Below, piece by piece: positions 2,699-27,506 of a stretch of DNA of 64,000 nt. The notes beneath the pieces were generated by a model. That model did not search any database. It saw only the letters and a program-made list of their open reading frames with translations, and had not been told where the DNA came from. This DNA is from an uncultured Spirochaetales bacterium. GTDB lineage: Bacteria; Spirochaetota; Spirochaetia; SZUA-6. The stretch is from NCBI GenBank assembly GCA_964596425.1, contig CAZQTC010000007.1, forward strand, positions 10,294-74,293. The letters are read 5' to 3'. Both the position numbers and the translations under genes were made by a program. Each line of letters begins with the position of its first letter. Within the stretch, counting starts at the first letter, position 1.

Positions 2699-2718
2699 AG
2701 TAATTTCGTCTTTCCTCC

Positions 2719-6970: not shown

Positions 6971-6984
6971 CAAACTTATCCTCC

Positions 6985-8175: not shown

Positions 8176-8177
8176 AC

Positions 8178-8693
8178 CTAATCCGCCTCCTTTCCGTCGT
8201 ATGCAGGATCAACAGAGTTTCCTCTGCATTCCTCTATAATTTCCCTTACCCTGCCAGGGGTCAGCCTGGTGTACACCTTATCGTTAATCAACATTGCCGG
8301 TCCTTGATCGCACATTCCAAGACAGTTAACCCACTCCAGCGAAAACTCGCCATCAGGCGTGGTTTCTCCGAAGGATATACCAAGCTCATTCTCAAGCTGC
8401 CTAGCCACCCTACTCTTACCTGCCATATCACAGGCTATGGTTCGACATAACCGAATAACATAGCGGCCTTTAAGTTTTACATCAAGAAAAGAATAGAAGG
8501 AGACCACACCGGACACCTCAACAGGAGAAATGTTAAAATGCCCGGCAAGCTCCTGTATGGCAAAATCCGGGACATGTCGATATTTCCTCTGTATCTCCTG
8601 CAACACGGGTAACAATCCATCCCTTTTGGAACCAAACTTTCTTACCCAGGTTTTAATATCAGCGCTTAACTTTTCCCTTTCACATAACAACAT
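8178..8693 (-). CDS. hydC: NuoE-like thioredoxin-fold 2Fe-2S subunit of the hydrogenase (HydC)
   Basis: Typical NuoE/HoxE segments (LLPVLQEIQRKYRHVPDFAIQELAGHFNISPVEVSGVVSFYSF, and the CRTIACDMAG / CLGMCDQGPAM cysteine pairs). It is the first gene of the hydCBA operon. Confidence 0.85.
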   Translation of the reverse strand: MLLCEREKLSADIKTWVRKFGSKRDGLLPVLQEIQRKYRHVPDFAIQELAGHFNISPVEVSGVVSFYSFLDVKLKGRYVIRLCRTIACDMAGKSRVARQLENELGISFGETTPDGEFSLEWVNCLGMCDQGPAMLINDKVYTRLTPGRVREIIEECRGNSVDPAYDGKEAD

Positions 8694-10061: not shown

Positions 10062-11269
10062 TCAATCCTTAAAGCATCTACGGGCATCATTTTCGAGGCC
10101 TTATATGCGGGATATATCCCAAACACAAGTCCTATAAGAGTAGAGATTCCAAGGGCAAACAGTACATAGAGAATGTTCATTAAAAAATTCCACTTTAGTA
10201 TACTGCAGGCCAGTGCTGCTATTCCCACACCAAAAACAACCCCAACTCCACCCCCCAAGAGGCAGAGAGTAATCGCCTCTATCATAAACTGGACAAGGAT
10301 ATCCCGACTGTTAGCCCCCACCGCCATACGTATTCCTATCTCTCGGGTACGCTCTGTAACTGTTACAAGCATTATATTCATAATTCCAAGCCCACCAACT
10401 ACAAGTGAAATAGAGGCTATTACCAGTATCAACATACTTATCACATTAAGTACCCTATCCACAATTTTAATATAAGAATCCATCTTATCTATTCTAAACC
10501 GCTTTTCTCCCCTCAAATATCCGTACCTATTGATAAGATAGTTGTCTATCCTATCTATGGCGTTATCAACATTACTCATAGAATCGAAACGCATAAGATA
10601 GATCCAATATTTTATTTCTCGCCCGCCCCATATAAGTCTTGCCATATAACTTGAGGGAATAAAAATTGTGCTGTTATCGGAACCATCGCTCAAAAAACCC
10701 CTCTCTAACCTTTCGGTTAACCCCACCACGGTATAATCGTGTCCTAGCATACTAATCTGCTTACCGATGGGATCCGTATCCCCGAACAGATCCTCGGCTA
10801 TATCCGGCCTTATAACACAGACTTTCCTGTGTAACCTTATATCCTCGGGAACAAATGCTCTTCCCTTTGCCACTTTTATTGCAAATATCGAAAAATAATC
10901 GGGGCTTACTCCGAAAACAGAAACATCCTCTCCCTTTCCATGGTAACGTACCTTTACCCATCTGTTCAGTATGGTACTCTTGTACACAAGACCGGGCAGA
11001 TACCTATTAAAAAAATCCACATCACTCTCTCTAAGAAGAACCCTGTGCTCTCCCCTTACATAGGCATCCCTATTAGGCCTAACCCAGATAAGATTAGAAC
11101 CAAACTTACCCATTTCTCCCGATATCGAAGTCCTAAAGGACAAACCAACAATAGAAATCGCTATTAAGCTACCAACCCCAAAGTTTATACCAAGCATGGT
11201 GAGAAAAGAACGAATCTTGTTGGAGGCTATAACCTCAAATGTCTGTCGTATACCCTCTGCAATTTTCAT
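10058..11269 (-). CDS. ABC transporter permease, MacB/FtsX family (second, non-identical copy)
   Basis: Same architecture, with the ERTREIGIRMAVGA motif. It is distinct in sequence from the downstream copy, so the permease is likely heterodimeric. Confidence 0.8.
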   Translation of the reverse strand: MKIAEGIRQTFEVIASNKIRSFLTMLGINFGVGSLIAISIVGLSFRTSISGEMGKFGSNLIWVRPNRDAYVRGEHRVLLRESDVDFFNRYLPGLVYKSTILNRWVKVRYHGKGEDVSVFGVSPDYFSIFAIKVAKGRAFVPEDIRLHRKVCVIRPDIAEDLFGDTDPIGKQISMLGHDYTVVGLTERLERGFLSDGSDNSTIFIPSSYMARLIWGGREIKYWIYLMRFDSMSNVDNAIDRIDNYLINRYGYLRGEKRFRIDKMDSYIKIVDRVLNVISMLILVIASISLVVGGLGIMNIMLVTVTERTREIGIRMAVGANSRDILVQFMIEAITLCLLGGGVGVVFGVGIAALACSILKWNFLMNILYVLFALGISTLIGLVFGIYPAYKASKMMPVDALRIE

Positions 11270-11292
11270 CCTTCTCCCTTTACACCAACCAT

Positions 11293-12054
11293 CTACTCAT
11301 GCTTGGAAATAGCCTCTGCCAGAGCATCATTATCCAGATCCGCCACCCTGGACAATTCTTCCTCTGCATCTTTCGGTTTTGATATTCTTTCATCACCTGT
11401 AATAAGTCCATCCTTAAGGTAAACAATTCTACCGGCGTGAAGGGCAATGTCCATCTCATGCGTAACCATAATTATCGTAGCCCCCTCCCTGTGTAATTTC
11501 TGAAATATTGCTATTATGGAGAGCCCCGTCCTGGAATCAAGATTACCGGTGGGCTCATCCGCAAAAATTATACTGGGATTGTTAACAAGAGCCCTGGCAA
11601 TGGCCACACGTTGGCGTTGACCACCGGAAAGTTCATTGGGCTTGTGTTTGGCCCTATGTTCAAGGCCAACGCGTTTAAGCGCATCGAACGCAAGCTGGCG
11701 TCTTTCTCTCTCCCTGAGACCCGCATACACAAGGGGGAGTTCTACATTCCGAAGGGCGGTTATTCTGGGAAGAAGGTTAAAGGTTTGAAAGACAAAACCT
11801 ATCTTTTTATTGCGCAACCTTGCAAGTTCCGTATCGCCCAGGCCAGAAACATCCCTCCCCTCGAGAAAATAACGCCCCTCGGTAGGTCTATCAAGACAGC
11901 CTATTATATTCATCAGTGTCGATTTTCCGGAACCACTCGCTCCCATTATACAGACAAACTCGTGTTCCCTGACCTCCAGGTTAATACCGCGAAGGGCCTC
12001 TACCTCCACCATGCCCATCTTGTAAGTCTTTTTTATATTTTCGAGCCTTATCAT
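11293..12054 (-). CDS. ABC transporter ATP-binding protein, MacB/LolD type
   Basis: Walker [10 protein letters not shown], signature [15 protein letters not shown], Walker [13 protein letters not shown], and H-loop MVTHE. Confidence 0.9.
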
Positions 12055-13334
12055 TTTTTCTTCTTCTCTTTCACTCTCACAAGTTCACCATCATGAAAGA
12101 GCTTAAGATTCCCTCTAAGAATCATATCACCCACCTTAAGACCGGAAATAACCTCTATCTTTTCCACACCCATGATTCCCGTTTTTATCCCGGTTTTTAC
12201 AAGTTTATAGAGCCCTTCGGACATGCTTGAGTCAGAGTTTTTCATTTTAACAAGCCTATACACAAACTTCTTATTTTTTTCCAAAAAGTACTGATCAATA
12301 CCGATAGCCGGAACGTTACTTTTCTTTTCCACCGTAATGTAGATAGAACAACTAGCGCCCACCTTGGCAAGCCCTTTGGGATCATCTATATCAACATGAA
12401 CCTCACACACCCTGGAATCTCCAATATTTCTAATAACGGGAGCAATGTAAGAAACCCTACCCGTAAGTGCCGAGTTTATAAAGGTATCAGATTCTATCCT
12501 CACCCTTTGATTCAATCCAACATACCCGATATCAACCTCATCTATGTTAACCACAACCTCGAGATCCCTTGTATCCTGGACCACCGCTACAGAAGAACCA
12601 ACCCCAACTACAATTCCCTCCTCAACCTTAAGCCTGGTCACAACCCCGGAAATTGGGCTTTTGATGGTACAGTTTTTAAGATCTTCCTCTATGGAGTTAA
12701 GATTATCAATTGCATGTCTTACCTCGGATGAGTTTTCTATTATTTCAGCGTCACTCGGAGGAGGGGTTTTTCTGGAATCATTTATGCTCCTACCCTCACG
12801 AAGATTCAGACGCTGAAGAGCAGAGATATAACTGTCCCGAGCAATTTCATACCTATCCCGTGCATCGGCAAGTTGTTCATCACTGGCAGACTGGATCTTA
12901 TAGAGGGCCTTAACACTCTCGTAATTTCTCTTTGCCTGCTCAAGATTGGCTTTCGCTTGCCTAAAGGCAACTCGCAGGTTTAGCAGCTCTTCCTTAACAG
13001 AGTTTCTAGCACTCCTAAGGGAGGAGAGGGCCTGTCGTTTTCTAATTAATAGCTTCTCTTTATCCAGAAGGACAAGGATATCCCCCTTGCGGACAACCGA
13101 GCCCTCTTTAACAAGCACCCTACTTACCGTTCCGCTAACCTTGGCTACAACCACCGCACGCTTCTTACTTCTTATTTCTCCGTTTGCAGATACCTCCCTG
13201 GAGAGATTAGCAGTAGCAACCCTCGTAAAATCAACAATGGGATAATGTTTTTTTCTCTTTGATATAATCCCTCCGACAACCATTAGTACTATCAAAATCA
13301 AAACTACAAAGAACCCTATTCTTTTTTTTGTCAT
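12051..13334 (-). CDS. HlyD/MacA-family periplasmic adaptor (membrane fusion protein)
   Basis: N-terminal TM anchor, long coiled-coil region, and beta-barrel/lipoyl-like segments. It overlaps the ATPase gene by 4 bp. Confidence 0.8.
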
Positions 13335-13390
13335 CTATACCTTCCCCTTCGATAATTTTCCGAGTAATGTTTTAGCCTCCTTCAACCCAT

Positions 13391-14911
13391 CTAACCTCCG
13401 TATTTACTCTCCAGAACAGAAAGTAAGTCCCTGCCCAACAAAACCAGAATATTCAAATATTCCCTGTTAAGTTCCATCCTATAGTTTAAGAGCTCTAGTT
13501 TTGCATTTTCGAGTTCCATATTGTACCCATTCAAATTACTCTGTGTTATTCTTCCCAGGTTGAAATCTGTCTTTGCCTTTTTGTACTCCATCTCTGCGAT
13601 TTTGAGATTGAGTTTTGCATATTCATAGAGCTTCCTGTTTTCTTCCATCTTACCAAAGAGATCCTCCAGACTGTTCCTAATCTCCCGTTTTTGCGCCTCC
13701 AACCTATACCTGGTAGCCTCTATACCAGCCTTCGTCGCCTTTAACCGTGCATCAAAACTGCCGGCATCGAAGAGTTTCGCAGATAGGGTTATACTTCCAC
13801 TTAACACCGGAGAAGAATTGTCATTAAAAGAATTTTCCAGAGCAACTTTGAGATCGGTGCCGGAAGCGGCAGTGGTGGAAAATCGCACCCCACCCGACAC
13901 TGTTACAACCGGAGCTCTACCTAATTTTGTTTTTATAAGATTATCTTCGGCAATTTTCAGATTGTAGGTTGAAACAGCAAGATTAATATTCTCCGAAAGG
14001 GCTCTCTCTATAACCTCTTTTCGTTTACTAAGAAGGGAATAATCACAGAGATCCTCTATACCTGTGCTTACAACCACATCTCCTGGAAATCCATACTCCT
14101 CACAAAATCTCTCCTTCATAACGGCAAAACTCTTCTTTGCCTCCTCCCAATCAATCCTCGCCTTGTAAAAAGAGGCCTCTGCCTTAAGCAATTCCAATCT
14201 GGAAACCTTTCCCAATCTATACCGTTTCCTCGTAGTCTCGTAACTCGCTCTGGCGTTATTAAACCTAAAGGCAACAAACTGTTCCTTGCTCTTTAAAAAC
14301 TTAAGGTTAAAGTACTCGTTTATAAGATTTAGAACCTCACTATTCAGCCGGGAGAGATAATTCTTCTCCGCTATTTTCAAATTATTAGCGGCAATTCTTT
14401 TACCTGCTCCATAGGCATCCTCAAAAAAAATAGGCTGAGAAAGTGTTAAGCCTATCTCCGGGGTATTATCATACCTTGCCCCTGTCCCCCCAAGAGCATC
14501 GGATAGGATTTCCGGGGTTATAGAACCATTTGAGGTAACACTTAGGGTATCCTTAAGGGTCAAACTAAGTGTTCCACCAGTTGGGAGGTACTGATTAACA
14601 GAGAGGCCAGGTGTAATACTCCAGCTCTTAGCATTTTCAATCGTATAATCAGTACCCAAATAGCTTCCCTCTGTTTTCGTATTATTAACTACAGAAAGAG
14701 ACATATCGGTACTAACACTGGGGTACAAACTTGAAATGTACTCCACATAACTTGCCCTGGCAGATTCGAGAGATAAACATGTGGCTTCAAAATTAGGAGA
14801 GTGCTCTTTAAACCTCTCCAGGAGAGTAGAAAGATTCAGCTCTGCCTCCGAAAAGACACCAATACCAGAAAGGCAAAAACCAAAGAGAAGAACCCCCCAA
14901 AATCTCTTCAT
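13391..14911 (-). CDS. TolC-like outer-membrane efflux protein (OMF)
   Basis: Signal peptide starting at the internal Met (MKRFWGVLLFGFCLSGIGVFS). Two long coiled-coil/beta repeats typical of outer-membrane factors. It is the first gene of the tolC-hlyD-macB-ftsX-ftsX operon. Confidence 0.7.
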   Translation of the reverse strand: MKRFWGVLLFGFCLSGIGVFSEAELNLSTLLERFKEHSPNFEATCLSLESARASYVEYISSLYPSVSTDMSLSVVNNTKTEGSYLGTDYTIENAKSWSITPGLSVNQYLPTGGTLSLTLKDTLSVTSNGSITPEILSDALGGTGARYDNTPEIGLTLSQPIFFEDAYGAGKRIAANNLKIAEKNYLSRLNSEVLNLINEYFNLKFLKSKEQFVAFRFNNARASYETTRKRYRLGKVSRLELLKAEASFYKARIDWEEAKKSFAVMKERFCEEYGFPGDVVVSTGIEDLCDYSLLSKRKEVIERALSENINLAVSTYNLKIAEDNLIKTKLGRAPVVTVSGGVRFSTTAASGTDLKVALENSFNDNSSPVLSGSITLSAKLFDAGSFDARLKATKAGIEATRYRLEAQKREIRNSLEDLFGKMEENRKLYEYAKLNLKIAEMEYKKAKTDFNLGRITQSNLNGYNMELENAKLELLNYRMELNREYLNILVLLGRDLLSVLESKYGG

Positions 14912-14927
14912 ACCCTTCACCCAATTC

Positions 14928-15683
14928 CTACACGAAGAAGAGAGAAACCAACCCCGGAACGGCAGAAACAATCCCAAAAGTTATCACTATGCCTAGAGCC
15001 CGATTTGATCGAATTTTGCCAGCCGCCACAAGGCCATAGTATACTAACACAAAGTAGAGGATATTAAAAATATTGGTAAAGTAATCAATAAGATAAAACG
15101 GAAACTTTCCTAGGGCTGTACGATTAAAAAACGCAGCAATGCTAAGGTTGGTTTTAACGGCGTCACCCAACTCCATTACATTGGTAGCGGATGCTACAGC
15201 CCCCTTCCAATCGGAAAAGTACACGATTAGCCCGCTTACAACTCCCCCCACTACGGTAACAATGGCAGAAAACACAACAATTCGAAATAGGAGTTTGTAC
15301 GAAATCTCTCCTCCCCTAAAAATCTTTACAAGCAGCCATAGAACAAAAGCTCCCACATAAAATGTAACAAGATACACAATGATACTGCCAGCATAGGCCG
15401 AAACAATAGTGATTGTCCTGGTTACACCACTCTCAGCACCCCTTCTGGCCTGCTCCATAGAGATATTCATACCCTTTGCCTTCATCTTTGCCAGCTGCAG
15501 CGAAATGCTTTTATCCAGATAGACCTTGCTCGTTGTAATAGGGACTACAAAACTTACAGCCACCAGGGCCAAAATTAAGATAAAAACAATAGGAACAAAC
15601 ACCTTTGTATTCTCATTCACATCCCGAAATCCCTCCGATGGACTTGCAAGGATTTTCTTCCAGATCAAAAGAGATTTAAACAT
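14928..15683 (-). CDS. Yip1-domain integral membrane protein
   Basis: Five predicted TM helices after a short soluble N-terminus, with a general Yip1/YIF1-like pattern. GGGGAG RBS upstream. The call is by architecture only. Confidence 0.45.
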   Translation of the reverse strand: MFKSLLIWKKILASPSEGFRDVNENTKVFVPIVFILILALVAVSFVVPITTSKVYLDKSISLQLAKMKAKGMNISMEQARRGAESGVTRTITIVSAYAGSIIVYLVTFYVGAFVLWLLVKIFRGGEISYKLLFRIVVFSAIVTVVGGVVSGLIVYFSDWKGAVASATNVMELGDAVKTNLSIAAFFNRTALGKFPFYLIDYFTNIFNILYFVLVYYGLVAAGKIRSNRALGIVITFGIVSAVPGLVSLFFV

Positions 15684-16374
15684 ATCTCCCCCTTCGTTTT
15701 CTATTTTTTCTATTTTTTCGCAATGATTTCGCTTAAATATACAACTTTGAGAATGAAATATTCAAATCGGAAACCTCAAACCACACTTAATCACGCGGTG
15801 AACGAAGTAATAAAAATAAATAGAGACGACCTGCGATTGATTGTGATCCTTAACGACGGAAAAAACGAAAACGTAAAAAAGGGTCATGGGAGTAAAATAA
15901 CGCTTAAAAACTAAAAAAGCATCTCTCCTATTCTAAAATCCCCGTGTACACAGTGGGATACGGTTATATGGGCAAACTACACAGATACAAGGGGCTTCCC
16001 AAAAACGGGAGGTTTCTCTTCTTACTGAGACAAAACAACGAATACAGACACTACTACGGCGGAAACTCCGTTTCGATCACAAATACCAGGAGTATTAATT
16101 AGGAAGCAATTCCATGTTTCCTACCCACCTTCCATAAAATTTCTTATCCTGTTTTAAAAAGAGGTTCCAAGCCCCCAAAGTTAACTATCAAATCCAAAAG
16201 TTAGGGTTTTTCACCTTTAAGTTACTCCTTCAGCCATGTCTTCTATCATTTTTGATATATCACAGATGATACTACCAACAGAAAAATGCAACTCCCAACT
16301 TTCCCCGCGAGCCAAATAACGTTTATTTGCTTATCACACAAATAATTATATATCATCAATTCCAGTCAAACAAA

Positions 16375-16390
16375 TGGCACATAAGTTGCT
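16375..16390 (+). promoter_or_regulatory. Near-consensus sigma-54 (-24/-12) promoter TGGCAC-N5-TTGCT
   Basis: TGGCACATAAGTTGCT. GG and GC are separated by exactly 10 nt. It lies 57 bp upstream of the OMP / small protein / HK / NtrC-like operon. Confidence 0.6.
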
Positions 16391-16446
16391 TATTAACACA
16401 TGAATAAAAACAAGATTTATTCTATACTAATTTTTAGGAGGTCAAC

Positions 16447-17187
16447 ATGAAAAGACTAACAATTCTAACGGTAGTAATGCTATCCTTACTGGCTGGCGTT
16501 ACATTCGCAGAATTCCCTGGTATCAGTAAATGGGGAGCCATAGGCGGGGGATTTGGATACACCGGATTTATGGTAACCTATTCGGATACATCAACCCTAA
16601 ACTCCTTTCTAAAAGCCAACGGATACTCTGCGATTGACAATTTCGACTATTCCTTCGGAGGGGGGGGAGGCTCCGTAATAAACAATTTCTACATAGGGGG
16701 TTCCGGATTTGGAAGCATTCTATCCCAAACCTCAGATAATGCCTCCGGCAATACGTATCTCAAGAGAGAAACCGGAGGAGGAGGACTTGAGTTCGGATAT
16801 GTCTTACTACACCTAAAGAATTACCTCTTTCTCCCAATAGCGGGTTACACATGGGGATCAACAACCTACAAGGTGTACAACACCACGGCAACATCCACAG
16901 ATTTTCAAACTCTACTTACACAACCGGGGAATATGTCAGAGATAAAAAATTCCAAATTTTCCCTAAACGTAGCACTCTTAAACATTATAATGTTCAGGGG
17001 TATGGGCTTATACGTAAAACTCGGTTACTCCTTTACACCGGTAAGCACGTGGAGTTTGGACGGATACAGCGGACACATTACAAATACCCCACAGGAGAGT
17101 CCCCACTCGGTATTTATCTCGGCGGGGTTACTCTTCGGCGGAATGAAATCAACGAAGGAGTACAATGTAAAGGTCGAAAAAAAATAG
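16447..17187 (+). CDS. Secreted Gly/aromatic-rich protein, putative outer-membrane beta-barrel
   Basis: GGAGG RBS. Signal peptide MKRLTILTVVMLSLLAGVTFA. Alternating hydrophobic/Gly-rich strands (FGYTGFMVTY, GGGLEFGYVLL). No recognisable family. Confidence 0.45.
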   Translation: MKRLTILTVVMLSLLAGVTFAEFPGISKWGAIGGGFGYTGFMVTYSDTSTLNSFLKANGYSAIDNFDYSFGGGGGSVINNFYIGGSGFGSILSQTSDNASGNTYLKRETGGGGLEFGYVLLHLKNYLFLPIAGYTWGSTTYKVYNTTATSTDFQTLLTQPGNMSEIKNSKFSLNVALLNIIMFRGMGLYVKLGYSFTPVSTWSLDGYSGHITNTPQESPHSVFISAGLLFGGMKSTKEYNVKVEKK

Positions 17188-17216
17188 GTCGGTCTGTACA
17201 ATATTGAAAGGGGGTA

Positions 17217-17750
17217 TTGACTAGCAAGATGTTTTCTTCAATTACTACAGCAATCAGTAACTATGCCCGGGTAATCTTTGCCGTACTCGGTCTTGTGAGT
17301 CTCTACCCCAATGTAGAAATTAACAACGTACGTGCGATAGAAAAACGAGGAGCAATTTATGCACAATTCACAACCAGATCCCTGATTAACGAGTACTTAC
17401 TACAGATAATAGATTCGGGTATCGATATATACTACAGCGTAGAGGCAACAACGTACCTGACAACCAAAGGAAGGGAACGCGAAATATACAGAAATATCCT
17501 TATAAAAAGAATCTCTCACAGGGGGAATAGCTACATCTTGGACAATGAAGGTTTCAGATCCTGGAAAAAACTTCTAACCGTACTGAACACCAATTCCATT
17601 CTTATCCTCCCCGCCGAAAAGAGAGTGCGGGGGGGAACAATTAAAACAACAATAGTGCTAAAAATATTCTCCGATGCTGTTCCTGATCTTATGAACTTAT
17701 GGGGCAATAAGCCCAATATCGTGTTAAACTATAGGATAAATGAGAGTTAG
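17217..17750 (+). CDS. Small membrane-anchored protein of unknown function (DUF4390-like by size and context)
   Basis: One N-terminal TM (VIFAVLGLVSLY). About 177 aa. It overlaps the downstream kinase gene by 11 bp. The family assignment is tentative and from memory of TCS-adjacent DUF4390 genes. Confidence 0.35.
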   Translation: MTSKMFSSITTAISNYARVIFAVLGLVSLYPNVEINNVRAIEKRGAIYAQFTTRSLINEYLLQIIDSGIDIYYSVEATTYLTTKGREREIYRNILIKRISHRGNSYILDNEGFRSWKKLLTVLNTNSILILPAEKRVRGGTIKTTIVLKIFSDAVPDLMNLWGNKPNIVLNYRINES

Positions 17751-18969
17751 GTTTATCGTCGTACTATTTTTATCAATGCTGCTCATATTAAGTTCTTCCA
17801 TCATAATTACCTACAGGGCAATCGGAAAAACTCAGGAGAGTGTAAAAGGAAACCTCTTAAACAATCTCCTCTCAAGATACAAAGACAACCCGGAGATGAA
17901 AAAATCCATAGAGATATACCTTGCCTTTTCCCAAAAAAGAGCCGTGGAAATAACGAGGGATTCTCTCACCTACTATTCAATTGTACTATTTATAATGGGT
18001 ATTCTATTTGTCTTCTCTATCTTTGCCATAACCCGACCGATAAAACGGCTTTCTAACAAGGTAAATCTAATCCTGCACGACAACAAAACAATGAACGAAA
18101 TTTTACGGGGCAGGTTTAAACCAAAGGGTTCGTACGAGGTGAAACAACTGTACATAGCATTCGACAAACTGGTAAGGGATATAAAAGAGTACGAGGAAAT
18201 AGTGGGTGACAGAGAACGCTACAGAGGATGGAAAGAGATAGCAAGAATCATCGTTCACGAGATTAATAACCTAATCTCACCTATAGAAACCTACTCCGGC
18301 TATCTTCTCGAGACACTCCCCCAATCCGTATCCCACGTAACCCCCAAGGTAAGAGCAATTCTATCAAAGATAGAAGAGATAAGAGAAACCCTGGGGAAAT
18401 TTAGAGACCTTGCCCATCTACCAGAACCCCGGATTAGAGAGGTTAATCTATACAAACTTACCCACGACATAGTGGAAGAGTTTAAGGGGGTAGAGTTTGC
18501 ACCGGCGTTCGCATCATCAAAAGAATCCTTTCCCTATGTAGAGGAAAATGATTTTATAGTCAACACAGACCCGCTCCTATTTGGCGAAATTCTTAGAAAT
18601 ATAGTAAAAAACGCGGTAGAAAGCACCTTCCCTTCCACAACGAGCAATTCATTCGAAGGTTCGTCAGGGGAAAGAGAAAAGGAATCCCCCCGTGTAACAG
18701 TAACAATACAGAAAAAGGAGAACACAGTGAGGCTAGAGGTAACTGACAACGGACCCGGGATTCCGGAAAATATCAGAGACAAGATATTCACTCCCGGATT
18801 TTCCACAAAGGCGGGCAATATAGGAATAGGCCTCTCTCTGGTAAAGAGCCTATCCGAACAGTTAGGAATAGAGATAAAACTAGAGAGCAATCGGGGTGAG
18901 GGGACAAAATTCCTTATAGACTTGCAAACATCGATTTCCCAAAAACAAAAAAAACAGAGGGAAATATGA
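17740..18969 (+). CDS. Membrane sensor histidine kinase (2 TM, small periplasmic loop, HisKA + HATPase_c)
   Basis: Two TM segments flank a ~45-aa loop. H-box IVHEINNLISPI. N-box NIVKNAVEST. G1 DNGPGIP. G2 GIGLSLVKSL. Confidence 0.85.
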   Translation: MRVRFIVVLFLSMLLILSSSIIITYRAIGKTQESVKGNLLNNLLSRYKDNPEMKKSIEIYLAFSQKRAVEITRDSLTYYSIVLFIMGILFVFSIFAITRPIKRLSNKVNLILHDNKTMNEILRGRFKPKGSYEVKQLYIAFDKLVRDIKEYEEIVGDRERYRGWKEIARIIVHEINNLISPIETYSGYLLETLPQSVSHVTPKVRAILSKIEEIRETLGKFRDLAHLPEPRIREVNLYKLTHDIVEEFKGVEFAPAFASSKESFPYVEENDFIVNTDPLLFGEILRNIVKNAVESTFPSTTSNSFEGSSGEREKESPRVTVTIQKKENTVRLEVTDNGPGIPENIRDKIFTPGFSTKAGNIGIGLSLVKSLSEQLGIEIKLESNRGEGTKFLIDLQTSISQKQKKQREI

Positions 18970-20369
18970 GAATATTAATCGTAGACGACAACAGAGATGT
19001 AATAACCAGTATAGACAACGTCTTATCGGAGGACACTATCATAGGGGCAGGTTCCTTCAAAGAAACAGAGAAAATACTCAGAGAATACGGTGAAAAGAAT
19101 ATAGACGTCGCAATAATAGACGTGGTATTAAAAAACGAGGATGGTATCGATATACTAAAACATATAAGGGAAAACTATCCGTCCATACAATGTGTAATGA
19201 TATCCGGTTACTCCACCGTGGAAAAAGCGGTGGAATCCATAAAACTAGGTGCCTTCGATTTCCTCGAAAAACCCATATCCTATCAGAAACTCAAAGTAAC
19301 TCTAAAAAATGCCATAGAGAGAAAAAAATATACACGCCTCCTCGTACGTGAGGTAGATAGATACGCACTGATAGGGGAATCGCCCACAATAAAAAGGATA
19401 AACTCCCTGATAGAAAGAGCTGCCACCACGGACTTACCCGTTTTGATAGTAGGAGAAAGCGGAACGGGAAAGGAGAACGTAGCCCACCTTATACACCTAA
19501 AGAGCTCTCGCTTTGCAAATGAAATGGTAGAGCTAAACTGTGCATCAATTCCGGAGAGCCTATTCGAGAGCGAGTTATTCGGTTACGAAAAGGGCGCCTT
19601 TACAGGTGCAATCGGCAAAAGAACGGGCAAACTGGAACAGGCCAATGGGGGTACGTTATTTCTCGACGAGATAGGAGAGCTTCCCCTTTCGCAACAGGCA
19701 AAGCTTTTAAGAGTACTGGAAACAAAAAGTTTTACCCGCCTGGGAGGAGAAAAGAGTATAACAACCGATTTCAGGCTGATAAGTGCCACGAACAGGGACC
19801 TGGGGGAAATGGTAAAAGAGGGAGATTTTAGAGAAGACCTCTTCTTTAGGATAGGGGTAATTCTAATAGAAATCCCCCCTCTAAGGGAGAGAAAAGAAGA
19901 TATAGCACCACTGGCCCGTCACTTTCTCAACGAAATCGCAGAGAGCGAGAGGGTAAAAATTACCCTCTCGAAAGATGCCATAGAGCTTTTAAAATCCATA
20001 CCACTAAGGGGTAATGCAAGACAACTCAAAAACATCATACAGAGAGCCTTCGTACTATCAAACTCAGATCGCCACAACCGAGAGATAACAAAAGAGTGTC
20101 TTCTGGCAATTCTCTCACCCACAGAGAAACCCTCCCCGACAAGCTTGGGTTTTTCCACCACTGCGGACTCCCAAACTTATCGTGATATATTCGAAACCAC
20201 AATGCCCATATCCGAGGCAAAAAAGTTACTAGAAAAAAAATATATAGAAACCCAACTAGGCCTCCACGGGGGAAACATATCAAAAACAGCAATAGCACTC
20301 GGGATACTCCCCGGAAACCTTATGCGAAAGATGAAAAGTTTAGGGATCAAAATAAAACATAGTCATTAA
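18966..20369 (+). CDS. Sigma-54-dependent response regulator (NtrC/NtrX-like)
   Basis: ATGA overlap with the kinase gene. Receiver domain (MRILIVDDN...IIDVVL). AAA+ core [15 protein letters not shown] with GAFTGA. C-terminal HTH ([24 protein letters not shown]). Confidence 0.9.
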
Positions 20370-20707
20370 CCTATAGCAACAGAGCCTGTCTCTCCGCTCC
20401 TTATCCTTATACACTCTGTCAGGGGGAGAATAAAAATCTTACCATCCCCTATCTTATTTGTTCTCGCTCCCTTTATTATCGCGTTAACCGTAGGTTCAAC
20501 AAAATTCTCATTTACGGCTATCTCAATTCTCACCTTCTTTAAAAGATTAACCTCTACTGCAACCCCTCTGTATGATTCGGTATACCCCATCTGTTGTCCG
20601 CATCCCAATGCGTTAGTAATCGACATCTTCTTAACATCCGCCTTATAGAGCTCTTGCTTTACAGCATTAAGCTTATGAGGCTGAATATAAGCAATTATGA
20701 GTCTCAT
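20366..20707 (-). CDS. glnK: Nitrogen regulatory protein P-II (GlnK-type)
   Basis: Full-length P-II match ([20 protein letters not shown]...T-loop GYTESYRGV...B-loop [10 protein letters not shown]). Its stop codon overlaps the stop codon of the convergent regulator gene within TTAA at 20366-20369. Confidence 0.9.
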
Positions 20708-20727
20708 CTGTAAAAAACCTCCTCAAT

Positions 20728-21978
20728 TCACATGTTCTGGAATATCTGAAATCCACTATATGCCTCGAGTCCATGCTCATCGATGTCCAACCCTCTGAGT
20801 TCTTCATCTTCATGGACTCTAAGCCCCACGGTGAGTTTTATAGAGTAGAAGAGAAGCGTCGTGGTAAGGATTACCCATACAAATACAGAAAATGCACCGA
20901 GAGCCTGAATTCCAAGCTGCCTAAATCCACCACCGAAAAAGAGTCCCTTCATACCAGGTGTATTTGCAAACAACCCAACGGCAAGGGTTCCCCACACACC
21001 ACACACACCGTGAACAGAAACAGCACCAACAGGGTCATCTATATGGAAGATCTTATCTATTATTTCGATAGAGATTACTACAAGAAAACCCGCAACAACC
21101 CCTATAACCACAGCATCAAATGGAGTAACAACTGCACATCCCGCTGTTATACCGACAAGACCTGCAAGCACACCGTTTAGCGACATGCTGGGATCTGGTT
21201 TACCGTAGAGAAACCAGGAGAGAATCATAGCGGACAAAGCACCCGCCGAAGCTGCAATAGTAGTTGTAACTATTATAAGGGGAATTCTAGAATCAAAGGC
21301 GCTTAACGTACTTCCACCGTTAAAACCAAACCATCCAAACCAGAGAATAAAGACCCCCAGAGCCGCCAGGGGCATGTTATGACCTCTAATCGCCTTTACC
21401 TCCACCTTTCCGTTTAACCTTACATACTTACCTATTCTAGGCCCAAGAACCACAGCCCCCATCAGAGCTGCCCATCCACCTGTTGAATGCACAACCGTAC
21501 TCCCTGCAAAATCAAAAAACCCAAGCTTATTCAGCCAGCCATCACCAGACCATATCCAGTGACCCAACACCGGATAGATAAAACCCGAGATAAATACACT
21601 GTAGATTAAATATGAAACAAATCTGGTTCTCTCCGACATAGCGCCGGAAACGATGGTAGCGGCAGCTGCAGCAAAGACAACCTGAAATATCCAATTTTTC
21701 AATGTAGCATGAGTGGCACTGGAAAATAGAAACCCCTTTGTCCCAATAAAACCACTGACAGAACTGTTAGGAGAATGCCCATACATTATCCCCCACCCAA
21801 CAAACCAGAAAACTATCGCCCCTATGGAAAAATCCAGAAGATTTTTCATGATTATATTATTTGCATTCTTTGCCCTGGTCAGACCCGTTTCCACCATCGC
21901 AAAACCAGCCTGCATAAAGAAGACCAGGGCTGCAGCTATTATTACCCAGAATGTATTAACCGCCTCTGTTACACTCAT
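20728..21978 (-). CDS. amtB: Ammonium transporter Amt
   Basis: Canonical Amt N-terminus and TM pattern (MSVTEAVNTFWVIIAAALVFFMQAGFAMVETG). The true start is probably the second ATG (21978). The first ATG (21993) is followed by GGGAGGAG, which serves as the RBS for the second. Confidence 0.9.
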   Translation of the reverse strand: MSVTEAVNTFWVIIAAALVFFMQAGFAMVETGLTRAKNANNIIMKNLLDFSIGAIVFWFVGWGIMYGHSPNSSVSGFIGTKGFLFSSATHATLKNWIFQVVFAAAAATIVSGAMSERTRFVSYLIYSVFISGFIYPVLGHWIWSGDGWLNKLGFFDFAGSTVVHSTGGWAALMGAVVLGPRIGKYVRLNGKVEVKAIRGHNMPLAALGVFILWFGWFGFNGGSTLSAFDSRIPLIIVTTTIAASAGALSAMILSWFLYGKPDPSMSLNGVLAGLVGITAGCAVVTPFDAVVIGVVAGFLVVISIEIIDKIFHIDDPVGAVSVHGVCGVWGTLAVGLFANTPGMKGLFFGGGFRQLGIQALGAFSVFVWVILTTTLLFYSIKLTVGLRVHEDEELRGLDIDEHGLEAYSGFQIFQNM

Positions 21979-22038
21979 GTTGACTCCTCCCATAGATTTT
22001 ATAAATTTTTAGCCTTAACCTTAATTTTCCCATTTAAC

Positions 22039-22056
22039 GTGCACAAAATATGCCAA
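22039..22056 (-). promoter_or_regulatory. Sigma-54-like promoter TGGCAT-N5-GTGCA upstream of amtB-glnK
   Basis: Minus-strand reading TTGGCATATTTTGTGCAC. The GG-N10-GC spacing is correct. There is one mismatch in each element relative to TGGCAC-N5-TTGCA. Confidence 0.45.
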
Positions 22057-22233
22057 TCGCAGGCCATAGAGGAGGAAATATTCTTTCCAGCAATAGACAG
22101 ATTAGAGGAGAAGTTATAATTATTTACCTAAAGAATAATTATGTGCGAGTTTAATACTGTAAATCTTTTCATATACTTTTGCGGTTATACTTTTACTGTT
22201 GCGCACGAAAGGCAGCTTCACTATTATGGAAGA

Positions 22234-24474
22234 ATGGAAAGGATTGCTAGATTCATCGTTAGACACTCAAAAAAAATAATAGCTCTAACCATTATCATCA
22301 ACCTTCTAGCCGCAGCCTCACTGATAAGAGCACGAATAGACGTATCGGTAGAATCCTTCTTTAAACTAGGCGACAAATACACCAGAGCTCTAAGCAGGAT
22401 AACCAAGAAGTACGGGGGAATCGATACCATTCAAATCGTTCTTTCGTCAAATACATCGCTATTAACAGAAAAGAATCTCTTATCGTTATGGAGATACCAG
22501 AAAAAGATAACAGCAGTAAAGGGAATTGTTTCCGCTATATCATTCATTCCTCAGACAATCCCCGCTACCTATCCGCCCTTAAAAACCAACGAAAGCCTCT
22601 TAAAAAAATACTATAGAAGGATTGCCAGAATCGTATCTAAAGGGGGAGGCCTCTTTCCTCTATTTATATCAACAGACAAAAAAACAGCAATAGTACAGGT
22701 TAGATTGAAAGAGAACCAGGACAAGTACAAACTCTTAAAAGAAATCAAATCCATACAAACACCTGTAGGCATGAAAGCCCGTTACACAGGTACAGTCGTC
22801 ATATACGACACACTCTGGCATTTACTTCTTAGGATACTTCTGGTTCTTCCCCCTGCCGTAATCATAATCCTCCTGACAATCTTCTATTTAAACATTAGAG
22901 ACAGAAAACATACCCTCTTTGCACTACTCCCCGCGGGGTTTGGTGCATTGTGGGTCTTTGGTACGATTTTCTGGCTGGGCATTCCTCTAAACCTTATACT
23001 AATCGTAACCCCTATATTTGTAATTATAATGGGCTCGGCGGACGGACTTCACTTTGTAATACACTATCTGGAAAACATAAACGCCCTAAGAGAGAAACAA
23101 TCCAAAGAAACCTCCGCTACATACCCAAAGGTTACATACTCAAAAACTATCAAAGAACGGGCGATAGCAAAGACTTTAAGAGAGGTAGGTATCCCGATGA
23201 TCCTTACCTCATTAACAACTATGCTGGGATTTCTCTCTCTTGCCGTGTCTAAAATAGTATCACTTAAATACCTGGGATTATTCACCGCCATTGGAATTGC
23301 CTACGCAGGGATTGTATCGTGGCTATTCCTTCCTGCAGTTCTCTCGCTTGCAATACCCAGGGTTAATCTTGAAAGAAAAAAATTGGGGGAACATATTCTT
23401 GTGTGGTTAAACTGGCTAATAAAACACCCGGTACTCCCCGTTTCCATCTTCTTGTTAATTGTAGCTCTTTCCGCAATAGCCATTCCACATCTAACGGTAT
23501 ACTCAGATCAACTCTTGTTCTTTAAGAAACACTCCCGAATAAGGAAAACCTTTGCCTATGTGGAAGAGAAATTTGGTTCAAGTCAACCGGTAATAGGCGA
23601 AATAAAACTTAACACCGACCTGTGGAAGCGGGGGGAGATGCAAAGGATATATAAGATAGAGAGAGAACTGGAAAAAATTAAAGGTATCTATAGAGTCTAC
23701 TCTATAATTGACGCCTTAAAATGGAACTATGAGGTACAGGTGAAAAAAGAGGGATTTCCACCCCCGCTTCTTGTAAAATTAATGCTAAAAATGTTTCCCC
23801 AAGGCAAAAACATGGTAAAGGACAACGGGGTTCTCCTATTTATCGTACCCAGAAACTGGAACAATGAGAGTGCGGACAGGCTTATGCAATATGCCTCCAA
23901 ACACAAAAATCTTACCGTTACAGGGATCCCCATTCTTTTTGCACGACTCAACGAACTCGTTGTGGAAACCCAGAAAAAATCCTTTGTAATTACCTTTGTC
24001 GGAATATTTCTAATACTTCTTTTGCTCTACAGAAACCTAAAGTACGCTCTTGTCTCAATGATACCCATAAGTATTACGGTAACGGGTATCTATGGATTAC
24101 TCTATATAACAGGTTTCAACCTAAACCTTCTAACTGTAACCATGTCATCAATCGCCATAGGTGTAGGCATCGACTATGCAATCCACTTTGTCTACCTGAT
24201 TGATTACTACAAGGGAGAGGACTTACGTTACTACGTGGATGCGGCAATGAAATCCTCCGGGATACCCATTCTGGCAAATGCCCTCGGAATATCTGCGGGC
24301 ATGATTGCCATGTTTCTATCCCCCCTGCGTATTCACTTTCAGGTGGGGGTGGTTATGATATTTGCAATGCTTGTAAGTTCACTATCTACCCTCACGATAA
24401 TACCGCTGTTCTTTAAAAAATCCTTTAGCGGCTCATTTGAAAATTCCCCTATCAAAAACCATCTAAAACAATGA
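22234..24474 (+). CDS. MMPL/RND-superfamily transporter (two 6-TM modules with large extracytoplasmic loops)
   Basis: Duplicated TM bundle with sterol-sensing/MMPL-like conserved stretches (GSADGLHFVIHY; GVGIDYAIHFVY). The likely start is the internal Met MERIARF at 22234, rather than 22141. Confidence 0.7.
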   Translation: MERIARFIVRHSKKIIALTIIINLLAAASLIRARIDVSVESFFKLGDKYTRALSRITKKYGGIDTIQIVLSSNTSLLTEKNLLSLWRYQKKITAVKGIVSAISFIPQTIPATYPPLKTNESLLKKYYRRIARIVSKGGGLFPLFISTDKKTAIVQVRLKENQDKYKLLKEIKSIQTPVGMKARYTGTVVIYDTLWHLLLRILLVLPPAVIIILLTIFYLNIRDRKHTLFALLPAGFGALWVFGTIFWLGIPLNLILIVTPIFVIIMGSADGLHFVIHYLENINALREKQSKETSATYPKVTYSKTIKERAIAKTLREVGIPMILTSLTTMLGFLSLAVSKIVSLKYLGLFTAIGIAYAGIVSWLFLPAVLSLAIPRVNLERKKLGEHILVWLNWLIKHPVLPVSIFLLIVALSAIAIPHLTVYSDQLLFFKKHSRIRKTFAYVEEKFGSSQPVIGEIKLNTDLWKRGEMQRIYKIERELEKIKGIYRVYSIIDALKWNYEVQVKKEGFPPPLLVKLMLKMFPQGKNMVKDNGVLLFIVPRNWNNESADRLMQYASKHKNLTVTGIPILFARLNELVVETQKKSFVITFVGIFLILLLLYRNLKYALVSMIPISITVTGIYGLLYITGFNLNLLTVTMSSIAIGVGIDYAIHFVYLIDYYKGEDLRYYVDAAMKSSGIPILANALGISAGMIAMFLSPLRIHFQVGVVMIFAMLVSSLSTLTIIPLFFKKSFSGSFENSPIKNHLKQ

Positions 24475-25305: not shown

Positions 25306-25734
25306 ATGACTGTAAAAACTAAACCCTTTAGAGATCAACACGACAAAATTCTCGAAATCACCAGGAAAATCGCCAGGTTTCTCATAGACAACGAAGAACT
25401 AAGCGCAAATTCAAATCATGTAAACAAACTACTTGCTGATCTTTCGCGTAACCTCCAGATCCACTTAACTCTGGAAGACACGGCACTCTATCCTATCATC
25501 TGTATAACCGACGATGCAGAGATGAGAGAATTAGCTGAAAAATATAAAACAGAGATGGGCGACATAAAAAAACTCTGCGTAGAGTATTTCGAAAAATGGC
25601 AAAGCAGCTTTAAGATAAAAAGCAATCCCATGGGATTCATAAAAGAAACCAATACTCTATTCAATTTACTAAACAAAAGAATAGATCTGGAGAACAACGA
25701 ACTCTACAAACGAATAGACGAGTTATTTAAATAA
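25306..25734 (+). CDS. Small hemerythrin-like (HHE cation-binding-like) protein
   Basis: DQHDKILEI resembles the iD.qHk.L hemerythrin N-terminal motif. IHLTLEDTALYP resembles the H..EE....yP second motif. Later His ligands are not evident, so the assignment is tentative. Confidence 0.35.
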   Translation: MTVKTKPFRDQHDKILEITRKIARFLIDNEELSANSNHVNKLLADLSRNLQIHLTLEDTALYPIICITDDAEMRELAEKYKTEMGDIKKLCVEYFEKWQSSFKIKSNPMGFIKETNTLFNLLNKRIDLENNELYKRIDELFK

Positions 25735-25757
25735 GCTCAAACGGGGGTTTACCATCC

Positions 25758-27506
25758 ATGAAACGAAAGTATATCTGGCCACTATACGGCTTTATAGCAG
25801 GAACTCTTTTTTCCTCCCTACAGCTAACCATGATCCTCAAACAATTAAAAATCACGCAAGGGGTTAATATTTTCGCATTTTGGGAGAGACCGGTAGGACC
25901 TATAGTATTAGCAGTTACCTTTTTCATAATAGGGTGGTATCAGGACAAATTAATAAATCAGAGAAAACAGGTTGAACAAAAGAATAAAGAACTTCAAAAA
26001 GCAATGATAGACCAGGCTATGCAGCTCGGGGAAGAACTAAACCGAACAATGGATCAATTAACCAGATATACCGACCAGCTCGATAAGATCGTAAACAATA
26101 TAAACATTGGAATATGCGTAATCAACAACGAGTACAATATTGAAGAGGGATTTAACAATTCACTAATTGATATCTTCGGAGACAAGGATTACCTCCATAA
26201 CTCTATATTTGATACAATATTTAACACAATCAATGAAAACCAAAAGAAGGAAATGAAAGATTTCCTGGAACAGTGCTTCTCCAATGCATTGGCATCGGAT
26301 GACATGCTTAGCGAGGCCAATCCCCTCGAAGAGTTTACATATCTATACCTAGAAAAAGGCAAGGCCATACCTAAAACAATCGTAACAAAGATTGTGCGTT
26401 TCAAGTCGACAGAGGACGAAATAGAAAAAGTGATGTTTCTCTTTGAAGACGTTACCACAGAAAGAGAATTAAAAAAACTGATAAAACAAAAAGAAGAAGA
26501 ATACAACAGGAGCTACGACACAATAGTCTCCCTGCTTAGACATGACACTCAGTTAACAAAACAATTTATCAACGAATTACGAGAAAATATGCAAAGGCTA
26601 AAGACAAGTCTGGATGACCTTAAACAAAACGAAAAAAATATCGAATTAATAAACGACATTATAGCAATAGTACACTCTATCAAAGGAGAGGCTTTTTCAC
26701 TTGACTTCGAAAAACTGGCCGAGGAGGCCTCTCAATTTGAGAGGTTCCTCAAGGAAAATCGAAACAGAACTCTGGATTTAGAGATGAATCTGGGGATACT
26801 CAACCACTACGAAAAACTTAGAAACCAGAGTGCCTCCTACGACAGGATAATAGAAAATATGGCAAACTTTATTTACGGGGAAAAAACAGTAGAGAAACTA
26901 CTCGGAGTGGAAACCCGAGATCGGACAAAACACCAAAACACAAGAGATGATACACTCTCCCTATTGGAGAAGGAACTCCGGATTATAACAGAAAAAACCG
27001 CTAAAGAGAAAGAAAAATCAGTCACTCTTAATTTTGAACACGAGGTTGAAAAAATTGACCCTAAAATCTACAAACCTTTAAAGGAAATTCTGTTACATTT
27101 AATCAGAAACTCAATAGACCACGGAATTGAACATCCCGAGATCAGAAAACAAAAGGGTAAAGATGAATCGGGCAATATCAAAATCACGGTAAAAAGGATA
27201 GACGACAATCTTGTGATAGAGTATAGTGATGACGGAGCTGGACTGGATATAAATCGCATAAAAGAAAAGGCTATAAAAGAAAAAATTGTAAGCGAAGAAG
27301 AAGCCGAAAAAATGAGCAAAGCGGAAATTATTAAACTAATATTCAAAGAGGGATTCACCACAAGTAATAATGCGGATATGATCTCGGGGACAGGCGCAGG
27401 TATGTCAATAGTAAAGAAAAATGTAATAACCCAACTGAAGGGAAAACTAAGTATTTTCAACAGAGGAGGAGAGGGATTCAAACTAAAAATTAATATTCCA
27501 AGTTAA
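25758..27506 (+). CDS. Membrane-anchored CheA-like histidine kinase (TM + sensor region + Hpt/P1 + dimerization linker + CheA-type P4 ATPase), no CheW-like P5 domain
   Basis: Two N-terminal TM helices. The Hpt motif IVHSIKGEAFSL has the phospho-acceptor His. The P4 N-box HLIRNSIDHGIE is CheA-specific. G1 DDGAGLD. G2 GTGAGMSIVK. The protein ends 20 aa after G2, so no P5 is present. Confidence 0.7.
   Translation: MKRKYIWPLYGFIAGTLFSSLQLTMILKQLKITQGVNIFAFWERPVGPIVLAVTFFIIGWYQDKLINQRKQVEQKNKELQKAMIDQAMQLGEELNRTMDQLTRYTDQLDKIVNNINIGICVINNEYNIEEGFNNSLIDIFGDKDYLHNSIFDTIFNTINENQKKEMKDFLEQCFSNALASDDMLSEANPLEEFTYLYLEKGKAIPKTIVTKIVRFKSTEDEIEKVMFLFEDVTTERELKKLIKQKEEEYNRSYDTIVSLLRHDTQLTKQFINELRENMQRLKTSLDDLKQNEKNIELINDIIAIVHSIKGEAFSLDFEKLAEEASQFERFLKENRNRTLDLEMNLGILNHYEKLRNQSASYDRIIENMANFIYGEKTVEKLLGVETRDRTKHQNTRDDTLSLLEKELRIITEKTAKEKEKSVTLNFEHEVEKIDPKIYKPLKEILLHLIRNSIDHGIEHPEIRKQKGKDESGNIKITVKRIDDNLVIEYSDDGAGLDINRIKEKAIKEKIVSEEEAEKMSKAEIIKLIFKEGFTTSNNADMISGTGAGMSIVKKNVITQLKGKLSIFNRGGEGFKLKINIPS

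Follow-up and report, generated by a model that had tools for sequence, protein, structure and literature searches.

The DNA analyzed here (hereafter the window) is a stretch of 64,000 nucleotides (nt) from an uncultured Spirochaetales bacterium (SZUA-6; GCA_964596425.1, contig CAZQTC010000007.1, positions 10,294-74,293). Open reading frame (ORF) calling, together with Pfam and NCBIfam scans of the window, revealed a cassette of four co-linear genes, which encode a predicted outer-membrane barrel (P1), a small protein that is probably exported (P2), a sensor histidine kinase, and a sigma-54 activator. The cassette is preceded by a -24/-12 element typical of sigma-54 promoters and converges with an amtB-glnK operon that carries such an element of its own. 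The features of the two units are as follows:

16244-16271, + strand: candidate upstream activator sequence, recognized by its conservation among orthologs; two abutting 14-bp palindromes, TATCATTTTTGATA and TATCACAGATGATA
16375-16390, + strand: sigma-54 -24/-12 element TGGCAC-ATAAG-TTGCT (TGGCACATAAGTTGCT), with GG-N10-GC spacing; present in 12/12 related loci
16447-17187, + strand: gene for P1, 246 amino acids (aa), a secreted, Gly-rich protein of an uncharacterized family, with a signal peptide and a predicted 8-stranded outer-membrane beta-barrel
17229-17750, + strand: gene for P2, 173 aa, a candidate remote DUF4390 (PlrP-like) periplasmic protein, with sub-threshold Pfam matches and a signal-like hydrophobic N-terminus
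17740-18969, + strand: gene for the sensor histidine kinase, with a transmembrane segment at ~4-24, a periplasmic loop of ~50 aa, a transmembrane segment at ~77-99, a HAMP-like linker, the H-box IVHEINN, and HATPase_c
18966-20369, + strand: gene for an NtrC-family sigma-54 enhancer-binding response regulator (Response_reg, Sigma54_activat, and HTH_8), with receiver Asp52, Walker A, GAFTGA, and a Fis-type helix-turn-helix
20366-20707, - strand: glnK, encoding a P-II protein (Pfam P-II, 85.6 bits against 25), second gene of amtB-glnK
20728-21978, - strand: amtB, encoding an ammonium transporter (PF00909, 440 bits; TIGR00836, 461 bits against 343)
22055-22040, - strand: sigma-54 -24/-12 element TGGCAT-ATTTT-GTGCA (TGGCATATTTTGTGCA), whose 3' end (22040) lies 61 nt from the amtB ATG at 21978
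22116-22142, - strand: candidate amtB upstream activator site, ATAATTAT-N11-ATAATTAT, which in the related locus L002 reads ATAACTAT-N11-ATAATTAT; support weak, from two sequences only

Close homologs were searched for among 5.8 billion proteins, and the contigs of the homologs were then compared, which amounted to 261 kb of related-locus sequence (the loci carry L numbers; L001 is the same sequence as the window). Four close homologs each were found for P1 and P2. By profile, 236 remote P1 homologs were detected among 1.84 billion representative proteins and 19 P2 relatives in the 5.8-billion-protein set, none of which had a precomputed Pfam domain. Scanning a genome collection with a trimmed P2 alignment added 5 loci, every one from a Spirochaetota metagenome-assembled genome; the P2 relatives with source names (n = 2) and these genome-scan loci (n = 5) were thus all from Spirochaetota. 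For motif statistics, one locus per lineage was used (n = 12 loci), in which the pattern NGGYAY-N5-NTGCN was searched for up to 300 nt upstream and compared with shuffled sequences.

An initial annotation, made from the sequence of the window, had placed a near-consensus -24/-12 promoter at 16375-16390, 57 bp before a four-gene operon, and the element, its spacing, and its distance were all confirmed: the end of TGGCACATAAGTTGCT lies 57 nt from the P1 ATG (16447), which is served by an AGGAGG ribosome-binding site. TGGCAC-N5-TTGC has a single exact match in the window, against a mean of 0.05 in shuffles. The looser pattern TGGCAY-N6-TGCW has 2 matches where 0.20 are expected, namely the cassette site and TGGCATATTTTGTGCA, both of which are intergenic and oriented toward their genes. 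In an alignment of four orthologous upstream regions (alignment A1), ATGGCAY-N5-TTGC is invariant while the flanks are divergent, and across the lineages NGGYAY-N5-NTGCN was found upstream of the cassette in 12/12 loci (shuffle mean 0.06 loci, maximum 2). The element precedes P1 even in L008, L010, L012, L011, and L020, where the identity of P1 is 45%, 35%, 32%, 31%, and 29%, respectively.

Candidate inverted repeats for an activator, which the initial annotation had proposed to look for 80-150 bp upstream of the -24 element, are also present. The tandem palindromes lie 104-131 nt upstream of it and are the only exact matches to TATCA-N4-TGATA in the window. The block is invariant across the four close orthologs, and an exact palindrome, often in tandem, was found upstream of the cassette in 9/12 loci, against a shuffle mean of 0.01. 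Exact copies precede the cassette in L002, L004, L005, L008, L010, L012, L014, L017, L018, and L020, the last being a further locus with both promoter element and palindrome, whereas in L011 the copy upstream of P1 has one mismatch. Apart from one within the kinase gene of L015 (at 6231), all exact copies in the 261 kb are located 5' of the cassette, in intergenic DNA; in L016, the exact palindrome is found 484 nt upstream of its -24 element. Promoter and palindrome thereby persist over P1 identities from 76% down to 29%. Because the element is conserved in 12/12 loci and is accompanied by an upstream palindrome in 9/12, the comparative data indicate that the cassette promoter is real and functional; transcription would start near 16400. 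The recognition helix of the regulator is conserved among the cassette orthologs and unlike that of a second activator encoded in the window, which fits a conserved DNA target, and we infer that the regulator binds the TATCA-N4-TGATA palindrome.

Several further observations were made in this upstream region. In several cassette promoters (seven loci; 16340-16361 in the window), the stretch that separates the palindrome from the -24 element contains a motif of the AATTAT/ATAATTAT type. Counted from the -24 element, it lies ~20-30 nt upstream in L002, L005, L012, and the window; matching positions were seen in L002, L005, L010, L012, L016, and L017. Two copies of it also precede the amtB promoter (22116-22142). 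It could be the site of a DNA-bending protein, or AT-rich background. An integration host factor site between palindrome and promoter was considered and rejected: no match to WATCAANNNNTTR was seen when the sequence was read, only the AATTAT-type motif. Compared with all relatives, the window has ~440 bp more intergenic DNA ahead of the cassette (15684-16119), and this additional DNA contains a 63-aa ORF (15723-15914, + strand), which has no Pfam match on record, and a terminator-like hairpin (15990-16017, + strand). A scan of positions 15000-23000 with Rfam gave no match.

The first gene of the cassette had been described as encoding a secreted, Gly-rich putative beta-barrel protein, and structure prediction agrees. 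A model of P1 built from a 50-sequence family alignment was confident (predicted local distance difference test [pLDDT] 89.5, predicted template modeling score [pTM] 0.81) and showed eight long strands, predicting a signal peptide followed by an 8-stranded outer-membrane barrel; a model from the four orthologs only was useless (pLDDT 29.8). The window protein itself had no match in Pfam, to OMP_b-brl (PF13505) not even at E<=10, and weak matches to this family were found in 3 of the 50 family members (best E 1.5e-4). P1 matches 8-stranded outer-membrane barrels and shares an N-terminal signal peptide with small ones such as the N-terminal domain of OmpA/OprF, NspA, OmpW, OmpX, and Thermus TtoA. 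However, its sequence identity to them is only 7-12%, it has Gly-rich motifs specific to its family (GGGG, IGGxGxG, and FxxLLxNP), and its last strand is followed by a charged carboxyl-terminal tail in place of the expected terminal aromatic residue.

Just 3' of the P1 stop codon, a strong GC-rich stem-loop was seen in eight related loci, within the P1-P2 spacers of L002 (10742-10950), L004 (5813-5950), L005 (8472-8604), L008 (8736-8891), L010 (8769-8840), L011 (6754-6825), L012 (6745-6824), and L017 (4938-5000). The hairpin of L008 has a T-run and resembles an intrinsic terminator. In the window, the 41-nt spacer (17188-17228) lacks a strong hairpin and folds weakly (-7.4 kcal/mol). Where present, the hairpin may be an attenuator or a stabilizer of the mRNA 3' end, which sets the ratio of P1 to regulator.

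The second gene had been taken to encode a small membrane protein. The N-terminus of P2 carries a short, signal-peptide-like hydrophobic stretch (VIFAVLGLVSL) and the protein has no 19-residue transmembrane segment, so that an exported protein is the better description; both the export of P2 and its role are inferred. The gene, which has an alternative start at TTG 17217, overlaps the kinase gene by 11 nt. P2 of the window had no Pfam match at E<0.01, and comparison of the P2 profile with PDB sequences gave nothing meaningful (best E 0.36). The sole Pfam family matched by more than one P2 member was DUF4390 (PF14334), with matches in 3 of the 9 members of set A6 and 3 of the 19 members of set A8. 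The L012 ortholog matched it at E 4.1e-5 (residues 23-81 to profile positions 4-62) and P2 of the window at E 0.1 (residues 28-146 to positions 3-132 of 161), with 23.5 and 12.5 bits, respectively, against a gathering score of 27. At the N-terminus of mature P2, these alignments keep the same register, and P2 may be a remote DUF4390 (PlrP-like) periplasmic protein.

The kinase gene encodes a protein with a minimal sensor region. The second half of its periplasmic loop is conserved (E..K.I..Y.AF...RA.E.TR), and a HAMP domain was detected in the L008 ortholog. No PAS or PDC domain was detected in the kinase, which, judged by this architecture, is therefore neither NtrB-like nor NtrY-like. Its score against the NtrB model was 51.7 bits (cut-off 240) and against ZraS 69 bits (cut-off 479). 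The best NCBIfam match was to the LIC_11548 family, the neighbor of the Leptospira regulator EbpB, with 87 bits against a cut-off of 750, which is a distant resemblance only. The H-box of the kinase has the form HExxN, the motif of bifunctional kinase/phosphatases.

That the operon ends in a sigma-54 activator, as first proposed, was borne out by the GAFTGA-containing NtrC-family regulator, in which the receiver Asp, Walker A, and GAFTGA are intact. It scored 374 bits against NtrC TIGR01818 (cut-off 558.6), 303 against PRK10923 (620), 362 against NtrX NF051870 (600), and 356 against AtoC, all well under the equivalog cut-offs. By these scores, it is a generic NtrC-family enhancer-binding response regulator and not an NtrC or NtrX equivalog. 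In the regulators of L008 and L017, the near-invariant GAFTGA (residue ~208) reads GAFTDA; their promoters and palindromes are perfect.

Two known systems offer themselves for comparison. ZraP-ZraS-ZraR of Escherichia coli is a sigma-54-dependent two-component envelope system, in which an NtrC-family regulator activates a sigma-54 promoter beside its own genes and this promoter drives a small envelope protein with feedback; the same scheme is proposed here, and the catalytic domain of the kinase matches the ZraS and AtoS models. By contrast, P1 and P2 have no homology to ZraP, the genes are co-linear rather than divergent, and the sensor region of the kinase differs. The second is PlrP of Bordetella, a periplasmic DUF4390 protein that is the third component of an NtrYX-family two-component system (PMC13001219). 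plrP lies directly 5' of the kinase gene plrS, with a 4-bp overlap, and genetic evidence indicates that PlrP restrains the phosphatase activity of the NtrY-family kinase PlrS (PMC13001219). DUF4390 genes are reported to be always co-localized with ntrYX homologs, and only in beta- and gamma-proteobacteria and a few relatives (PMC13001219).

As in PlrP-PlrS-PlrR, the gene of a small exported protein overlaps and directly precedes that of a membrane kinase and a regulator gene follows, and the H-box HExxN is common to both kinases. The proposed logic is also the same, with a periplasmic third component tuning the balance between kinase and phosphatase, and P2 matches DUF4390 weakly. The two systems also differ. 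This cassette is from Spirochaetota and its DUF4390 membership is sub-threshold; its kinase has no PDC or PAS domain and only the ~50-aa periplasmic loop; its operon is sigma-54-driven, with a defined palindrome; and an outer-membrane barrel gene comes first, while there is no rsmB. The AAA+ domain, which beta-proteobacterial NtrX lacks, is complete in this regulator and contains GAFTGA. The initial annotation had likened the pair to NtrY/NtrX or NtrB/NtrC. The weak PlrP-type matches of P2 and its gene position lend partial support to the former, whereas the sub-equivalog scores, the lack of PAS, and the membrane-bound kinase are against both, and the comparison with NtrYX survives solely as a functional analogy via P2.

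The cassette is kept as a unit across Spirochaetota. The order P1-P2-kinase-regulator is found in L002, L004, L005-L007, L008/L009, L010, L012, L014, L017, and L018, in neighborhoods that are mutually unrelated (a sugar ABC transporter with NAGidase, dnaN, purD, and an integrase are among them). amtB-glnK lies next to it only in the window/L001 and the closely related L002, whereas at least 8 other Spirochaetota lineages have the cassette with promoter and palindrome but without amtB-glnK. Loci lacking amtB-glnK are L005-L007, L008, L010, L012, L014-L017, and L018. Among these, L005-L007 are syntenic with the window and have the same flanks (Yip1 and a MacAB/OEP efflux cluster; an MMPL gene), yet the regulator gene is directly followed by the MMPL gene. 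In L014 (4004-4645), P1 appears to be truncated. L015 and L016 have no P1, and their sigma-54 element stands directly before P2-kinase-regulator (upstream of 4962/4965), with a SuhB-like gene upstream. As these elements directly precede P2-kinase-regulator, they support sigma-54 control of the regulator genes themselves. Together with the tight spacing of the genes in the window (+41, -11, and -4 nt), they also support the proposed co-transcription of all four genes.

A recent horizontal insertion of amtB-glnK was considered, since AmtB and GlnK are 91% and 97% identical to their L002 orthologs, compared to 56-76% for the cassette proteins. However, DNA identity between the window and L002 is 70-82% throughout, and similar for the cassette genes, amtB-glnK, and flanks; the gap in protein identity therefore reflects constraint at the protein level, and the insertion was rejected. 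Seen from these comparisons, the presence or absence of amtB-glnK is a simple gain or loss, the four-gene cassette is self-contained and appears Spirochaetota-specific, and its position beside amtB-glnK is an accident.

amtB-glnK itself has the features of a separate sigma-54 unit. A weaker TGGCAT-N5-GTGCA site had been noted before it in the initial annotation; it is present at 22055-22040 (- strand) and conserved in L002, the one other locus compared (a look-up for a third amtB locus gave none), where it reads TGGCACGTTTTGTGCA within the shared block TTGGCAyrTTTTGTGCAmGTTAA. The most likely start of amtB is 21978 (MSVTEA, likewise in the ortholog) rather than 21993. Relative to the -24 GG, the two copies of the repeat at 22116-22142 have their centers ~66 and 85 nt upstream, and the repeat is unique in the window with up to 2 mismatches allowed, while TATCA-N4-TGATA is absent upstream of amtB, even with one mismatch. 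glnK is absent at this position in L005-L007. The convergence of regulator gene and glnK, with overlapping stop codons, was also found as described: the TAA of the regulator (20367-20369) and that of glnK (complement of 20366-20368) overlap in the TTAA at 20366-20369. No convincing terminator was seen between the two units (window 20135-20369), and the corresponding gap in L002 is 35 nt. Transcription from either sigma-54 promoter could run into the other unit, in antisense.

In Leptospira interrogans, amtB is sigma-54-dependent and requires EbpA, an activator with a GAF domain, rather than a regulator of the NtrC type; no targets are assigned to EbpB, which is NtrC-like (review PMC12655853). 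A sigma-54 amtB promoter is thus documented in another spirochaete (EbpA-amtB; PMC12655853). The unit in the window likewise shares with enterobacterial NtrB-NtrC/glnK-amtB and leptospiral EbpA/amtB a sigma-54 amtB promoter with an upstream repeat at a typical activator distance. By contrast, the adjacent regulator is no NtrC equivalog, the kinase is not NtrB-like, and the gene order is amtB and then glnK. Going by these features, amtB-glnK is an ordinary operon, whose sigma-54 promoter and upstream repeat are separate from those of the cassette. Presumably it is served by a different activator, which is probably encoded elsewhere.

All in all, we consider it probable that the cassette serves envelope signaling, depends on sigma-54, and is probably autoregulated, and that the neighboring sigma-54 amtB-glnK operon is regulated independently of it. 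In the mechanism that we propose, the phosphorylated regulator would bind the tandem TATCA-N4-TGATA palindromes ~105-130 nt upstream of the -24 element, oligomerize, and reach the promoter-bound sigma-54 holoenzyme (16375-16390) by DNA looping. ATP hydrolysis through the GAFTGA loop would then open the cassette promoter, giving a transcript for P1, P2, kinase, and regulator, in a loop of positive autoregulation. P2, whose translation is coupled to that of the kinase, would act in the periplasm on the short loop of the kinase and set its kinase/phosphatase balance, by analogy with PlrP. P1 would be the main output or, alternatively, a partner of P2 in the outer membrane; since a strong GC-rich hairpin follows P1 in eight relatives, it is possibly the dominant product, with partial read-through to the genes behind it. 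The theme of the cassette is likely sensing or remodeling of the cell envelope, not nitrogen. Such a theme fits sigma-54 regulons, which are in general associated with the bacterial exterior (PMC3162934).

A number of findings weigh against this reading. Searches for an RpoN box were negative in both the window and the 261 kb of related loci, and two orthologous regulators have GAFTDA instead of GAFTGA. With a hairpin after P1 in most relatives, read-through to P2-kinase-regulator, and hence autoregulation, may be partial only. Distant P1 homologs occur without kinase or regulator, as in the GC-rich L019, where P1 stands alone without a sigma-54 motif, and in L011 neither a kinase nor a regulator gene adjoins P1-P2, which do have the promoter and palindrome. 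Finally, the DUF4390 matches fall below the Pfam gathering score, and 16/19 P2 relatives have no match.

Some of these points would be accommodated by an ordinary two-component system, in which the kinase senses its signal directly, P1 and P2 are effectors only (such as a small-molecule channel, or a pair with a structural or remodeling role in the outer membrane), and the likeness to DUF4390 is spurious. The hairpin in most relatives suggests that P1 is the abundant product, and the existence of P1 family members without kinase or regulator, the sub-threshold DUF4390 matches, and the conservation of the kinase's own periplasmic loop all speak for this explanation. On the other hand, P2 lies directly 5' of the kinase gene, overlapping or nearly abutting it in 8/11 lineages, and it stays with kinase and regulator after the loss of P1 (L015 and L016). 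The ~50-aa loop is probably too short for a known ligand-binding fold, and weak matches to DUF4390 recur in register at the mature N-terminus. We therefore regard a purely effector role of P1 and P2 as possible but rather doubtful.

The initial annotation had instead read the locus as a nitrogen module, in which kinase and regulator are an NtrB/NtrC- or NtrY/NtrX-type pair that activates both its own operon and amtB-glnK, and P1 and P2 serve as a porin or accessory pair for the uptake of ammonium or another nitrogen source. The cassette does adjoin and converge with amtB-glnK in the window and L002, both units have sigma-54 promoters, and the best NCBIfam matches of the regulator are NtrC (374 bits) and NtrX (362 bits). 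Moreover, there are small barrels, OmpW and AlkL among them, that conduct small molecules, and P1-P2 of L011 follow arginase and polyamine genes. In this locus (Spirochaetia bacterium 38H-sp), saccharopine-dehydrogenase-like, Orn/DAP/Arg decarboxylase, and arginase-family genes precede P1-P2 (2394-5829) and look like genes for polyamine synthesis. Nevertheless, amtB-glnK is absent beside the cassette in all the other lineages listed above (L005-L007, L008, L010, L012, L014-L017, and L018), the upstream region of amtB has a different conserved repeat in place of the cassette palindrome, the scores of the regulator are far under the NtrC and NtrX cut-offs (558.6 and 600), and the kinase is a membrane protein that lacks PAS. 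No further nitrogen genes were found among the window ORFs scanned, and an 8-stranded barrel is no general porin. The nitrogen reading thus appears improbable, and adjacency to amtB-glnK together with sigma-54 motifs is insufficient for calling a nitrogen regulon.

It is hardly credible that the -24/-12 matches arose by chance in AT-rich intergenic DNA while the genes use sigma-70 promoters: although the region contains weak sigma-70-like hexamers (19 where 13 are expected) and the window and related loci gave no RpoN box, the motif is kept in 12/12 loci amid diverging flanks, with the right orientation and distance to the start codon in every one, and is accompanied by a conserved palindrome and a GAFTGA activator.

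The remainder of the window bears on sigma-54 as well, as a second system is encoded near its start (1-4725):

1071-1056, - strand: third -24/-12 site, TGGTATAAGTTTTGCT, 57 nt before the gene for a Peripla_BP_4 sugar-binding protein (999-7), with a hairpin between the activator gene and the site
1274-2698, - strand: gene for a GAFTGA response-regulator activator
2719-4212, - strand: gene for a histidine kinase with an N-terminal ABC-transporter ATPase domain fused to HisKA and HATPase_c
4249-4725, - strand: gene for a CBS protein

The trio of CBS, kinase, and activator genes is also found in L002 (1-2549), and the fusion of ABC ATPase and kinase is unusual. The 64 kb thereby contain two GAFTGA activators and three well-placed -24/-12 sites, and this second activator and third site indirectly support an active sigma-54 system. 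Other genes in the window include a HydABC-type trimeric [FeFe] hydrogenase cluster (5045-8693, - strand), a MacAB-TolC-like efflux cluster of Yip1, OEP, HlyD-like, ABC, and two FtsX genes that is divergent from the cassette (8829-15683, - strand), and a hemerythrin gene beside one for a CheA-like kinase (25306-27506, + strand).

Spirochaete sigma-54 regulons are small and poorly mapped, with Rrp2-RpoN-RpoS of Borrelia and EbpA-amtB of Leptospira as examples. Here, a complete regulatory unit, consisting of activator site, promoter, targets, kinase, and activator, has been defined comparatively for uncultured Spirochaetota. Its kind is already known, namely a sigma-54-dependent two-component operon with accessory envelope proteins, while this version of it is new. 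Should P2 prove to be a genuine relative of DUF4390, the periplasmic third components known from NtrYX-like systems would be older and more widely distributed than the beta- and gamma-proteobacterial distribution reported in 2026, and would also work with kinases that lack a PDC domain. A more speculative idea, which we put forward as unlikely but worth stating, is that of a four-component trans-envelope pathway: P1 would report the status of the outer membrane to the DUF4390-like P2, P2 would set the minimal-loop kinase, and the sigma-54 activator would amplify the whole set. If true, the cassette would be a spirochaetal, sigma-54-proficient relative of the PlrP-NtrYX three-component systems, extending their principle beyond Proteobacteria and adding an outer-membrane sensor to it. 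The significance of the cassette would be stronger if both the link to DUF4390 and a signaling role for P1 were confirmed.

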